64,000 nucleotides of DNA, from positions 32,001 to 96,000 of the forward strand of contig JAGXNO010000002.1 in assembly GCA_019894975.1 (NCBI GenBank), read 5' to 3'. This document shows positions 20,294 through 23,935 of this stretch, piece by piece. The first letter of the stretch is position 1. Every line of letters starts with the position of its first letter. A program made the position numbers and the translations under genes. This DNA comes from Promethearchaeota archaeon (GTDB lineage: Archaea; Asgardarchaeota; Lokiarchaeia; Sigyniarchaeales; SOKP01). The notes below the pieces were generated by a model. That model saw nothing but the letters and a program-made list of their open reading frames with translations. It was not told where the DNA came from and did no database searches.

Positions 20294-21361
20294 TTAAAAG
20301 AGAAGGATCGAGCTAAAAAATAACACAGTTGAAACAATGAAGTTAAAAGATAAATTATCGTCAATTTCTAGATCTAAATAATCAATAATGCCAATAACTA
20401 ACGCTCCTAGAACTGGCATTAAAATCAATCCAAAATGTTTTGGTATGTAAAATCCTCTCAGTGTCAATAACACAACTACTCCTGAGATGAAGGCAACAAT
20501 AACTCCCGCAAATAATCCTTCATAAGTTTTATTTGTATCACGGATTTTTCTTTTCCCGAATGTTCGACCAAATAGATTCGAAGCTGTGTCTCCAATTACG
20601 CCCATAGCCATTGAAGTACAGATTATTAAAGGACCAATTGGTTGAATAAGGCCATACAAAAGAATTATGGAAAAACAACCAATACTCATAGAAATATGGG
20701 GGCCTAACCTCATATGCAATTCCTTTTCTTTTAGTATTTGATTTACAGCTTTTAAAGGATAATATTTTGGTATTAAAATTTTTGTAAAATCAGCAGTTAA
20801 TAATCCTATTAAAGAAACCCCAACTAAGAAAACTACCAAGTTTTGAGTAAAAATCATAATATCATCACCCAATTCAAACATTTCAACAAAGAAGTTTGGC
20901 AAAAATTCTGAGAGATATCTAAAAACATTTTGAACCAGAAAACCTAGCGTGAAATAGAAAAATATAATACCTAATACCACTAAGTGAGTTAATTTTCGAT
21001 ATATATCGTATTTCAATGGTAAAATTTTCAACCTCGATTTGATTTCTTCAAGATTTTTTTTACCCCTTTCAATTTTTCTCTTTTCTCTGATTACTAAAAT
21101 AAAAAAAAGGGGGATAAAAAAAATAATAAAAAGGAGAAATAAAACATCAAAAGGAAATGCAATAAAACGAGTATTTTTTGGATTTATAATATGGATAATA
21201 GACAAATTAATCGTAATCGAAGATATAAATATAATTGAGTTTGCAAGATTGTTTATGAAAGCTCTTTTCTCGCTTTTCTGTTTTGCTAAGTAAGTAATAT
21301 AAAAAAGAATAAAGCTAAAAAAATATAAGAAGCAAACAATAAAAAATGAAAGGGGGTTCAA
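20294..21361 (-). CDS. CTP-dependent polyprenol/diacylglycerol kinase (dolichol kinase/Dgk1-like)
   Basis: RKLTH, GD..S.LFGR.FG, KTYEG..AG, DDNL; multiple TM helices. Confidence 0.85.
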   Translation of the reverse strand: MNPLSFFIVCFLYFFSFILFYITYLAKQKSEKRAFINNLANSIIFISSITINLSIIHIINPKNTRFIAFPFDVLFLLFIIFFIPLFFILVIREKRKIERGKKNLEEIKSRLKILPLKYDIYRKLTHLVVLGIIFFYFTLGFLVQNVFRYLSEFLPNFFVEMFELGDDIMIFTQNLVVFLVGVSLIGLLTADFTKILIPKYYPLKAVNQILKEKELHMRLGPHISMSIGCFSIILLYGLIQPIGPLIICTSMAMGVIGDTASNLFGRTFGKRKIRDTNKTYEGLFAGVIVAFISGVVVLLTLRGFYIPKHFGLILMPVLGALVIGIIDYLDLEIDDNLSFNFIVSTVLFFSSILLF

Positions 21362-21466: not shown

Positions 21467-22882
21467 TTAAAATTGAGATTCATCAATTTTTGGCATTTCC
21501 TCTGAAGCTAAAGCCCTTTGGATTTCTTCTGTCGGTAATTCGTAGTTTTCTAAATCGCCGGTCATGTAATTTTTATAAGCTAATAAATCAAAGAATCCAT
21601 GACCGCTAAAATTGAACAGAATTACTTTCTTTTCTTTCTCTTCCTTAGCTTTTAAAGCTTGATCGATAGCTTCCTTAATTGCATGGGTTGTTTCGGGAGC
21701 AGGAAGGATTCCTTCTGCTTTTGCAAATTGTAATCCTGCACCTATAGCCTCATTTTGATGATGCATTTCTGCTGAAATTACTTTATTGTTGTACAATATT
21801 GAAACAATAGGAGCAATCCCATGGTATCTCAATCCACCTGCATGAATCGGACTCGGAATAAAAGTGTGACCTAACGTATGCATTTTTACGATCGGACCTT
21901 TCATTGAAGTATCCCCAAAATCCCATCGATATTCACCTTTACAAACGCTAGGGCAAGCCCGCGGCTCTACTCCTATTATTTCCACTTCTGAATTAATTCC
22001 ATTTAATTTATCTTTAGCGAATGGAATCATCAAACCAGCGAAGTTAGATCCACCTCCCATGCATCCAATAACAACATCAGGATTCTTGATCCCAACCTTT
22101 TCTAATTGGAGCTTTGCTTCTTGTCCAATAATTGTTTGATGTAGAAGTACAAAATTCACAACGCTTCCTAAAGAATATCTAATTTTATCGCTCCTTAAAC
22201 TGTGTTCTAGTGCTTCAGAAATTGCAATTCCAAGACTACCAGGATGATCAGGATCTTTGGCTATAAAAGCTTTTCCTGATTCCGTAAGATTCGAAGGGCT
22301 AGCATGAACTTCGGCATCATAAGACCTCATTAAAATTTTCCTACCAGGCTTTTGAATAAAACTAGCTCTTACCATATAAACTGTGCATTTTATGTCAAAT
22401 AAGTTACATCCATACGCCAAACCTGAACCCCATTGACCCGCTCCAGTTTCTGTAACTAACTCTTCTAAACCGTCCTTCTTAGCATAATAGGCTTGAGCGA
22501 TGGCAGTATTAGGTTTATGTGATCCCGTAGGAGATACTGACTCATTTTTATAGAAAATTTTTATATCATCTCCTTCTATTCCTAACTCTTTTTCCAGACC
22601 TAAAGCGCGATGGAGCGGAGTTGGTCTATAGGTGCTAACCAAAATCTCTCTTACCTTATTTGGAATGGGTATTGTTTCTTCTTGAGATACTTCTTGTAAA
22701 ACACATTCTTTGGGAAAAATCGCGAAAGCCATCTCTGGAGGAGCCGGCTTTCCATCCATAGGATTGACCAAAGGAGTCATAGGAGTAGGTAAATCCGGTA
22801 CTATATTTACCCATTCCTTAGGTACTTCATTTGGCTCTAAAAATATCCGTGCTTTGAAATAATCTACCATTTTCTTTACCAC
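21467..22882 (-). CDS. trpB2: TrpB-like PLP enzyme (tryptophan synthase beta, type 2)
   Basis: RPTPL.RA, SPTGSHKPNTA, TETGAGQWG, GGGSNF, IHAGGLRYHG, PAPE..HA, SGHG. Confidence 0.95.
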   Translation of the reverse strand: MVKKMVDYFKARIFLEPNEVPKEWVNIVPDLPTPMTPLVNPMDGKPAPPEMAFAIFPKECVLQEVSQEETIPIPNKVREILVSTYRPTPLHRALGLEKELGIEGDDIKIFYKNESVSPTGSHKPNTAIAQAYYAKKDGLEELVTETGAGQWGSGLAYGCNLFDIKCTVYMVRASFIQKPGRKILMRSYDAEVHASPSNLTESGKAFIAKDPDHPGSLGIAISEALEHSLRSDKIRYSLGSVVNFVLLHQTIIGQEAKLQLEKVGIKNPDVVIGCMGGGSNFAGLMIPFAKDKLNGINSEVEIIGVEPRACPSVCKGEYRWDFGDTSMKGPIVKMHTLGHTFIPSPIHAGGLRYHGIAPIVSILYNNKVISAEMHHQNEAIGAGLQFAKAEGILPAPETTHAIKEAIDQALKAKEEKEKKVILFNFSGHGFFDLLAYKNYMTGDLENYELPTEEIQRALASEEMPKIDESQF

Positions 22883-22961
22883 ATAAATTTATTTTCATAC
22901 ATTAAATGTGTATCGTTAAAATATTGGAATTCAACAGTTTAATGCACACCAAAAGCATCGA

Positions 22962-23045
22962 TTTAGTCTTGAAAAAAACTAAAGTATGAGAAATAGTATG
23001 TTTTAATTAAATTTCATCCAATGTGAGGGCGTTATCGTGAACGCC
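22962..23045 (-). promoter_or_regulatory. Candidate attenuator RNA elements in the trpB2 leader
   Basis: GGCGTT/AACGCC hairpin (23028-23045) over the leader stop codon; second hairpin (22962-22983) containing a U7 tract (22972-22978). Confidence 0.55.
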
Positions 23046-23088
23046 AAGGCCACTGCCAGCACCAATTTAGGTTTGAAGCTAGTGTCAT
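23032..23088 (-). CDS. Trp-rich leader peptide MTLASNLNWCWQWPWRSR
   Basis: ATG at 23088, four TGG codons within seven codons, TAA at 23032; about 150 nt upstream of trpB2 on the same strand. Confidence 0.75.
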   Translation of the reverse strand: MTLASNLNWCWQWPWRSR

Positions 23089-23263
23089 GATTAATAATTG
23101 AATGAATAATTTAATATATTGATAATTTTATAGTTCGTTTAAAAAGTTAACTTTTTCTTGCTGACAATTACGTGATATTAGGTTTTAAGTACAAAAAGAT
23201 TTACAGAATTGTCAAAAGAACTACAAAATGTAATTAAATTTGAATAGGTTGTGATTTACATCT

Positions 23264-23668
23264 TTATCTATCTTCGAAGACTTTATAAAGGTTTTTGGCA
23301 GCAATACGCATAACCTTCACGGTCTTCATTAATGTGTCTATAACCGTTCCGGCGCAAACGATCACTAATCGGCCAGCATTTGTAATGATTATGTAGCCAT
23401 TTTCTGCTCTTACAATTACTTCACTTAAATCTTCTTGGAATAATGTTTGGATTGTTGATCTTCCCGTCATCAATAATGCACTAGCAAGTCCACAGAATTG
23501 ATCTCCATCAACATTATATTGGGGAAGAGCTGAAAATGCTATTTGATAACCTTCAGAACTTACAAGCGCAATAGCTTCTATATCTGCATTAGAAGTAATA
23601 AAAGTAATTTGAGGACTAATTTTCTCTATATCTTCTTGATTTATGCCTAAATCGGAACCAAACTGTAT
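23264..23668 (-). CDS. Roadblock/LC7 domain protein; probable start ATA at 23668 (ORF track extends to 23797)
   Basis: IEAIALVSSEG, GLASALL..G, EVIVRAENGYIII; AAGGTG Shine-Dalgarno at 23676-23681. Confidence 0.8.
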   Translation of the reverse strand: MQFGSDLGINQEDIEKISPQITFITSNADIEAIALVSSEGYQIAFSALPQYNVDGDQFCGLASALLMTGRSTIQTLFQEDLSEVIVRAENGYIIITNAGRLVIVCAGTVIDTLMKTVKVMRIAAKNLYKVFEDR

Positions 23669-23935
23669 GGGTAAACACCTTAAATGCTTAAAGGAATATG
23701 TATCGAATGTTATAATTATAATAATAATATTTCTTATTATATTTTTATATTTTAATTTGGAGAGAGATTTTAGATTGTAACTTTTCCAGTTAGTCAATCT
23801 ATAAACTAATTAAAAATAAATTATAACAATTTTTTGACTTAAGACAATTTATAAATTTTTTAGGAAGAATTGTGCAAAAAGAATTAATACTAAAATTTTA
23901 TTAATTAAACAATTAAGATTTGTATTTATTATACC

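Follow-up and report, generated by a model that had tools for sequence, protein, structure and literature searches.

To our knowledge, leader-peptide attenuation has been described only in bacteria. The enterobacterial trpL leader (RF00513, Trp_leader) is the familiar case for tryptophan (Trp). In archaea, the characterised control of trp genes is exerted by a DNA-binding repressor: in Methanothermobacter thermautotrophicus, TrpY represses trpEGCFBAD and trpB2 by binding to TRP boxes at the promoter. Archaeal transcription terminates at oligo-U with the factor FttA/aCPSF1, not at a hairpin or through Rho. Here we analyze a Trp-rich small open reading frame (sORF) and its surrounding leader upstream of trpB2 in an Asgard archaeon of the Promethearchaeota, within 64,000 nucleotides (nt) of contig JAGXNO010000002.1 (assembly GCA_019894975.1), the whole of which we call the window. 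A preliminary description of the locus had proposed control by ribosome stalling on the sORF and knew of no leader-peptide attenuator in Asgard archaea; our full-text searches of the searchable literature likewise found no report of one in any archaeon. Based on our data, the leader is probably a cis-acting Trp sensor of the leader-peptide kind, acting by ribosome-mediated attenuation.

The Asgard leader shares its general plan with trpL: Trp-biosynthesis genes are preceded, within their 5' leader, by a short ORF whose Trp codons cluster near its end. As is generally known for regions 1:2 of Escherichia coli trpL, a hairpin carries the Trp codons in its 5' strand and encloses the stop codon in its loop; a U-rich tract follows downstream, and sensing would presumably rely on the speed of the ribosome at the cognate codons. 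However, the Asgard leader is archaeal and trpL bacterial, and the two show no sequence or covariance-model similarity. Trp codons alternate in the Asgard sORF (W-x-W-x-W), whereas they are adjacent in trpL. A three-way junction, which the sORF's own 5' untranslated region (UTR) closes, surrounds the Asgard sORF, the leader has neither a G+C-rich terminator hairpin abutting the U-tract nor a demonstrated antiterminator, and an extra conserved pair of hairpins, P4/P5, stands beside the gene start. Rfam gave no match to Trp_leader, any other leader or a T-box in this region of the window, even at E values up to 10, and no match at the gathering score in 10 representative leader loci. The leader is an attenuator candidate by function and a member of no curated RNA family.

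TrpY also controls an archaeal trpB2 in response to tryptophan, but its system involves no leader ORF and no RNA structure. No TrpY-type operator was identified at the Asgard leader, where P4/P5 might still serve as a DNA site. Several other 5' leaders respond to Trp or tRNA-Trp and control the nascent transcript: TnaC detects free Trp on behalf of a catabolic operon, TRAP attaches to 11 GAG/UAG repeats, and T-boxes capture tRNA with a specifier loop together with a UGGN bulge. The Asgard leader is comparable in kind to tnaC, to Bacillus TRAP/anti-TRAP and to tRNA-Trp T-boxes, but none of their architectures fits it and Rfam gave no T-box match; T-box-like and TRAP-like readings were considered and rejected. 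Eukaryotic upstream ORFs (uORFs), such as those of GCN4 and the arginine attenuator peptide, likewise couple amino-acid status to a downstream ORF, but they do so by scanning and reinitiation or by peptide arrest on capped mRNAs, whereas the Asgard leader has no scanning and an RNA fold around its sORF. The comparison deserves attention since no prokaryotes are more closely related to eukaryotes than Asgard archaea. In mycobacteria, leaderless polycysteine sORFs are reported to attenuate downstream cysteine genes (bioRxiv 10.1101/834739); as described there, a cognate-codon-rich sORF at the mRNA 5' end senses the amino acid for biosynthetic genes without a classical terminator, as we propose here, but those sORFs are bacterial, Cys-sensing and leaderless, whereas the Asgard leader has a putative 5' UTR of ~30 nt that takes part in the closing helix P0.

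A Trp-rich sORF is conserved upstream of trpB2 and trpD

Read directly from the minus strand, the sORF encodes a peptide of 18 residues with the C-terminus WCWQWPWRSR. Trp occupies residues 9, 11, 13 and 15, placing four Trp codons within seven (23064-23044), and the stop codon lies 161 nt before the trpB2 start codon. The sORF with its four TGG codons, the GGCGTT/AACGCC hairpin over its stop and the U7 tract inside a second hairpin, all reported in the preliminary description, are present in the window (Table 1). The TATA-like box upstream contains a G/A-TTTTTA block that is invariant in a 17-species alignment, and trpD-type leaders have comparable A/T boxes 55-65 nt 5' of the sORF. The leader transcript would accordingly start ~30 nt before the sORF ATG.

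We compared this leader with those of relatives, namely metagenome-assembled genomes (MAGs) labelled Promethearchaeota or Promethearchaeia, Asgard archaea of the Loki type. All 17 orthologous trpB2 loci of the same genus carry, 190-230 nt upstream, an ATG-started sORF in which one or two codons and a stop come after the core WQWPW.W. Across the family we collected 58 distinct trpB2-type leaders and ~20 more that include the trpD type, giving at least 75 distinct leaders of the same build, with four Trp codons in the host genome and up to six in relatives. Every inspected leader stands before trpB2 or before a trpD-trpC operon. Ending in W-x-W but with quite different sequences, sORFs also occur 5' of trpB2 in other families of the order and phylum.

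A second view of this linkage came from a covariance model, R1, built from the most conserved 3' block of the leader (P4/P5) in 58 sequences; it replaced a simple regular expression that had missed the window's own copy. R1 has matches in 80 of the 101 family genomes, in nearly all of them a single one. When 26 matches that were not previously known were inspected, all 26 lay upstream of trpB2 or trpD, and 23 carried an ATG-started Trp-rich sORF together with the P2 hairpin; no such sORF was seen at the other three (L151, L157 and L162). The trpD genes linked to leaders were assigned by Pfam Glycos_transf_3 and 3N and by NCBIfam TIGR01245, and trpC follows immediately. In genera g12 and g17 the leader stands on the trpD operon and none on trpB2, one genome of the host genus has it on both, and two trpD loci of other Asgard families have sORFs with a Trp-rich C-terminus ~250 nt upstream. 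The strongest case for a Trp-specific regulator is that the same module precedes two unrelated Trp-biosynthesis loci and no other locus. The preliminary description had suggested a search upstream of trpB2 orthologues for Trp-rich sORFs and covarying hairpins: both are conserved there, and before trpD-trpC operons of related Asgard genomes as well. A lack of such sORFs at the orthologues, which that description had named as refuting its proposal, was thus not observed.

Chance controls and reading frame

The host genome contains 45,647 ATG-started sORFs of 8-60 codons, of which six have at least four Trp in seven codons; the five besides the leader sORF all overlap long ORFs. Among 2,288 intergenic sORFs ahead of long ORFs, the trpB2 leader sORF alone has at least three Trp in a seven-codon window. 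Within 400 nt 5' of trpB2, a WxW-ending sORF was found at 50 of 88 loci on the forward strand and at 0 of 88 on the reverse complement. Outside the host genus the counts were 33/71 and 0/71, and composition-matched shuffles averaged 0.16. The relatives are kin, so these locus counts are not independent trials, though they are spread over many genera and families. At 30 trpB2 loci taken from the phylum to which an Archaeoglobaceae MAG belongs, a WxW-ending sORF occurred once forward and once in reverse, indicating that the leader is not a general property of archaeal trpB2. These controls exclude a chance origin of the sORF. A scan of the host genome for other cognate-codon leaders returned only two Cys-rich sORFs, neighbours of an unknown gene and a RagA-like GTPase gene, which were judged irrelevant; no comparable leader for another amino acid was found among the host-genome intergenic sORFs.

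The reading frame was examined in 59 family leaders picked solely for the nucleotide pattern TGGNNNTGG. In 52 of the 59, the Trp frame is open from an ATG start as far as the core, compared with 1 and 6 for the other two frames, and the stop falls 6-16 codons after the core start. The position of the stop codon is conserved, and insertions and deletions within the sORF are multiples of three.

RNA structure of the leader

RNAalifold of the whole leader gave only weak consensus structures with 17 and with 58 sequences. We therefore defined helices clade by clade and then counted them on alignments of 17, 58 and 77 leaders, comparing pairing with slid controls. Compensatory changes were found in P0, P2/P2b, P4 and P5, and the latter three were paired in 84-97% of cells against 20-57% in the controls.

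Table 1. Features of the trpB2 leader and its gene, in window coordinates
Feature	Position	Strand	Remarks
TATA-like box TTTTTAAA	23138..23145	minus	~57 nt 5' of the sORF ATG; presumed leader promoter
P0 5' strand	23096..23116	minus	5' UTR just before the sORF ATG; pairs with 23005-23023
Leader sORF, 18 codons and TAA	23088-23032	minus	ATG 23088, TAA 23034-23032; direct reading
sORF Trp codons	23064-23062, 23058-23056, 23052-23050, 23046-23044	minus	
P2b 5' strand CAGUG	23051..23055	minus	Gln codon and UG of the next Trp codon; pairs with CAUUG 23019-23023
P2 hairpin GGCGUU/AACGCC	23028..23045	minus	Arms 23045-23040 / 23033-23028
CAUUGG motif and P0 3' strand	23005..23023	minus	CAUUGG at 23018-23023, near-invariant
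P3 hairpin	22962..22983	minus	TTTAGT 22983-22978 / ACTAAA 22967-22962; U7 22972-22978 in the loop
P4/P5 nested hairpin	22903..22951	minus	GCAUUA-N-yUGUUG-loop-CAAUA-N-UAACGA, conserved GAnACAC tail
P6 region, A-rich linker and Shine-Dalgarno-like GGU	22871..22902	minus	GGU 22878-22880, before the trpB2 ATG; from alignments
trpB2, stand-alone TrpB-like pyridoxal phosphate enzyme, 467 aa	21467..22870	minus	Pfam PALP; NF009057; TIGR01415

The sORF itself takes part in two of these helices. The 5' arm of P2 begins in the last Trp codon (its GG) and continues into the next codon, and the stop codon occupies the loop and the 3' arm; compensatory changes (CGU/ACG, CAU/AUG, UCU/AGA) are evident and 84% of cells are paired. 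P2b, just outside it, is paired in 86% of cells among 58 leaders against 22-56% in slid controls, and the two helices jointly reach 85% against the same range. The regulatory Trp and Gln codons thus form the 5' strand of a covarying helix, P2/P2b, that a stalled ribosome would disrupt. A further helix, P1, between sORF codons 1-4 and W1-Q-W2, would compete with P2b; it is 81% paired with no covariation beyond shuffles, and we regard it as possible only. The stability of the hairpin around the stop codon is modest relative to shuffles (median z -1.2), so for distant families we relied on position rather than energy.

P0 encloses this part of the leader. In the window it has an RNAduplex energy of -11.8 kcal/mol (z -2.8 against shuffles). 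Over 77 leaders its core covaries between UGAUUUA/UAAAUCA and UGGUUUA/UAAACCA (A-U 24, G-C 20, G-U 7), with 59.9% of cells paired compared with 38-45% in slid controls. Because P0 pairs the 5' UTR with the segment after CAUUGG, the sORF sits inside a three-way junction. In the CAUUGG motif, the columns G70 and G71 are nearly invariant among 58 leaders.

Between the junction and the gene, P3 has a variable sequence and six pairs with changes on both sides. The U7-in-hairpin element that had been singled out in the preliminary description is thus kept as a variable hairpin beside a T-run, but not as a fixed terminator. P4/P5 is the most conserved block of the leader, with an R1 match in the window at E 1.1e-10. 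Both P4 and P5 show compensatory changes together with many G-U changes, and the latter favour an RNA helix over a DNA palindrome. P6, which follows, is a variable hairpin that is weak in the host species and takes the forms CACAUC/GAUGUG, ACAUCAU/AUGAUG and ACACAUUA/UAAUGUGU elsewhere.

Proposed attenuation mechanism

The following course of events is proposed. The transcript, starting ~30 nt 5' of the sORF, would fold over its first ~115 nt into a three-way junction in which P0 joins the 5' UTR to the post-sORF segment and P2b with P2 forms an extended hairpin, its 5' strand made of Trp codons and its loop holding the stop codon. The U-rich tract, P3, P4/P5, P6, the Shine-Dalgarno-like element and the trp gene lie further downstream. 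A pioneer ribosome would read the sORF and, when charged tRNA-Trp is scarce, would stall on the W-x-W-x-W codons (W2-W4), keeping the 5' strand of P2/P2b open and freeing ~20 nt of the 3' strand, including CAUUGG. The leader could then refold, and RNA polymerase or ribosomes would reach trpB2, or trpD-trpC in relatives. When Trp is plentiful, the ribosome would terminate and leave, the junction would close and expression would be attenuated; the closed junction may favour termination at the T-run. Closure of P0 would also bury the initiation region of the sORF, which suggests one sensing event per transcript.

We lean towards the view that Asgard archaea of the Promethearchaeota use true leader-peptide attenuation in this form, with a co-transcriptional decision by a pioneer ribosome in a three-way junction and an output adapted to oligo-U/FttA termination or to the P4/P5 module, which would be the first such system in Archaea. 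If so, ribosome speed would serve archaea as a metabolic sensor, the leader would be a compact natural reporter with which to follow archaeal transcription-translation coupling and termination, whether factor-dependent or at oligo-U, and it would provide a point of comparison for the origin of eukaryotic uORF control.

Regarding the output step, CAUUGG is complementary to CAGUG of P2b, to UUCAAU of the 5' UTR (P0) and to UCCAAU of the P5 3' arm, and covariation does not discriminate among the three pairing options. The last of them makes a switch that opens P4/P5 conceivable. Ribosome-constrained folding of 17 leaders gave no consistent switch of Shine-Dalgarno accessibility. By rough estimate, premature termination at the U-tract is a tentative candidate for the output, a refolding of P4/P5/P6 with effects on translation, processing or factor binding is a slightly weaker one, and the remaining share belongs to some other step.

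Several observations weigh against attenuation as proposed. Translation of the sORF, stalling, the sign of the response and the output step are elements that we infer from the leader's build. A scan for bacterial-type terminators gave 0 sites, and an all-pairs covariation scan for an antiterminator gave only P4, P5 and 4-bp candidates; a mutually exclusive terminator/antiterminator pair does not appear to be demonstrable from covariation. With no clear set of alternative helices, the leader bears out the preliminary statement that a full bacterial 1-2-3-4 structure is not evident. A T-run of at least five follows the sORF stop by 22-40 nt in 50 of 58 leaders (86%) against 57% expected from shuffles, a modest enrichment in very AT-rich RNA from related sequences. 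For a biosynthetic gene, simple geometric models of ribosome-polymerase coupling or of FttA access predict a response of the wrong sign, and P4/P5, which keeps a fixed distance of 23-47 nt to the following start codon, might overlap with another promoter. In genus g13 (L041, L042, L085), the Trp frame (…SWRWQWAWRWCR) stands upstream of trpB2 without an in-frame ATG. An upstream TTG is available there as a start, and an ATG in the +1 frame gives a hydrophobic peptide; in L155, the trpD leader of this genus, the sORF is normal, with an ATG start and six Trp codons. Some lineages without the sORF still keep P4/P5. Finally, synonymous sites of the core (CAG, CCU) are conserved, which points to strong constraint at the RNA level that could in principle explain the UGG spacing.

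Transcript data support neither side. One 235-nt contig, 97% identical and derived from a metatranscriptome library of sediment, spans 22988-23222 including the sORF; it reaches upstream of the putative TATA box and stops 10 nt before the U7 tract. A second contig covers the trpB2 5' end up to 22889, and 22890-22987 is uncovered. Both contigs may be DNA carry-over, and contig ends are not transcript ends.

Alternative explanations

The conservation just described could also arise if the leader were a folded regulatory RNA recognised by some protein or ligand, either TRAP-like on UGG triplets 6 nt apart or through a factor binding P4/P5, with the sORF incidental. Nucleotide-level conservation of the core including its synonymous positions, the 6-nt UGGCNN periodicity, the persistence of P4/P5 in lineages without the sORF and the missing in-frame ATG in g13 all speak for it. 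However, the synonymous conservation is explained by the P1/P2b pairing, and an incidental sORF accounts poorly for the frame test, for the kept stop position and for insertions and deletions in multiples of three, nor does it sit well with distant families that retain the C-terminal W-x-W of an ATG-started ORF despite quite different nucleotides; we consider this explanation improbable. The locus might instead comprise two units, with trpB2 or trpD transcribed from its own promoter in or beside P4/P5, the latter being a palindromic operator for a TrpY-type repressor, and the sORF belonging to an independent small transcript that ends at the T-run and has little effect or acts by read-through. 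The T-run after the sORF suits such a division, as do the A/T-rich 8-mer between the 3' arms of the P4/P5 inverted repeat, its constant position, in four different contexts, 23-47 nt ahead of the next start codon, its survival without the sORF and the generally known repression of trpB2 by TrpY in Methanothermobacter. A DNA operator is difficult to reconcile with one-sided P4/P5 changes that are mostly G-U compatible (U-G 12 and G-U 5 against A-C 5) or with one clade whose CUUUA/UAAGG pairs as RNA and forms no DNA palindrome. Moreover, the sORF and P4/P5 move as one module to two genes with conserved spacing, and no regulator gene was found nearby, so two separate units are unlikely.

Two further explanations concern the peptide. 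As a TnaC-like arrest peptide, nascent WQWPW would detect free Trp within the exit tunnel and halt the ribosome on the stop codon or close to it, with high Trp as the signal; the core is indeed conserved beyond its Trp codons, with a Pro near the C-terminus and the stop two or three codons after the last Trp. But RNA pairing accounts for Q and P, only W-x-W is kept in distant families, where x and the tail vary, and the controlled genes are biosynthetic, so that induction by high Trp would make no metabolic sense; the arrest reading is very improbable. That the sORF yields a functional Trp-rich micropeptide, or is a chance ORF altogether, is hardly credible: a conserved family of short peptides exists, but the N-terminal half of the peptide is variable and the association with trp genes exclusive, on which grounds a micropeptide or a ribosomally synthesised and post-translationally modified peptide was rejected, and chance is excluded by the genome-wide, reverse-strand, shuffle and other-phylum controls.

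Downstream gene and Trp pathway of the host genome

The gene after the sORF, named in the preliminary description as the tryptophan synthase beta TrpB2, is confirmed as such by two NCBIfam models above their curated cut-offs (NF009057 at 641 bits, cut-off 366; TIGR01415 at 589 bits, cut-off 519). Its start is ATG 22870; GTG 22882 is not kept as a start among relatives.

The host genome (3.93 Mb, 31.6% G+C) is 95% complete, and no trpA, trpC, trpD or trpE was found across it. The sole Glycos_transf_3 match is weak and belongs to a protein of 515 residues that is rather nucleoside or AMP phosphorylase-like. trpB2 is thus the only Trp-pathway gene found, suggesting Trp auxotrophy with indole salvage, and control by Trp starvation makes metabolic sense for it. 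An indole-salvage role has been proposed for TrpB2 enzymes, and the isolated trpB2 fits this role. In organisms without the rest of the pathway, the leader would mark trpB2 as a gene induced by Trp starvation, which also fits indole salvage.

Upstream of trpB2 lies a Roadblock/LC7-domain gene (23264-23797, minus) that is kept beside it in many relatives, and downstream a CTP_transf_1 family gene (20294-21361, minus). No regulator gene adjoining trpB2 was found in the window.

Variant leaders in relatives

In two species of genus g16, L031 (G174) and L081 (G180), the Trp sORF upstream of trpB2 has been lost and the P4/P5 block kept; a remnant, AACGCC...CATTGG, is still visible in L081. Loss of the sORF with retention of P4/P5 indicates a separate function for the 3' block. 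In one genome (G158:C50; L032, L033), trpB2 is present twice, at a distance of 15 kb and in opposite orientations, and both copies have a Trp leader of their own.

An ORF of 85 aa and unknown function intervenes between leader and trpD in L144 (748-1005, plus strand), L145 and L146 of genus g12 and in L157 and L162. It starts ~32 nt after the P4/P5 element, so the first ORF controlled by the leader in those genomes is not trpD.

In family f11, four sORFs before trpB2 (L072, L086, L087, L090) end in W-x-W-G-P-x-G-P-V. The conservation of this tail probably reflects RNA constraint, because it coincides with a GGGUCC/GGACCC hairpin just after the Trp codons.

Short leaders occur in family f7 (L065 and L066, genomes of ~1.4 Mb), where 64-72 nt separate the sORF stop from trpB2 and a CCUCUA segment pairs with the trpB2 Shine-Dalgarno GGAGG around a U6/A6 loop; these leaders are possibly a translational version of the same control. 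In L017 of family f3, the fold predicted from this single sequence pairs the Trp codons GGGCU.UGG with CCAGCCC, directly followed by U6, and would form a junction-type terminator whose 5' arm is made of the regulatory codons.

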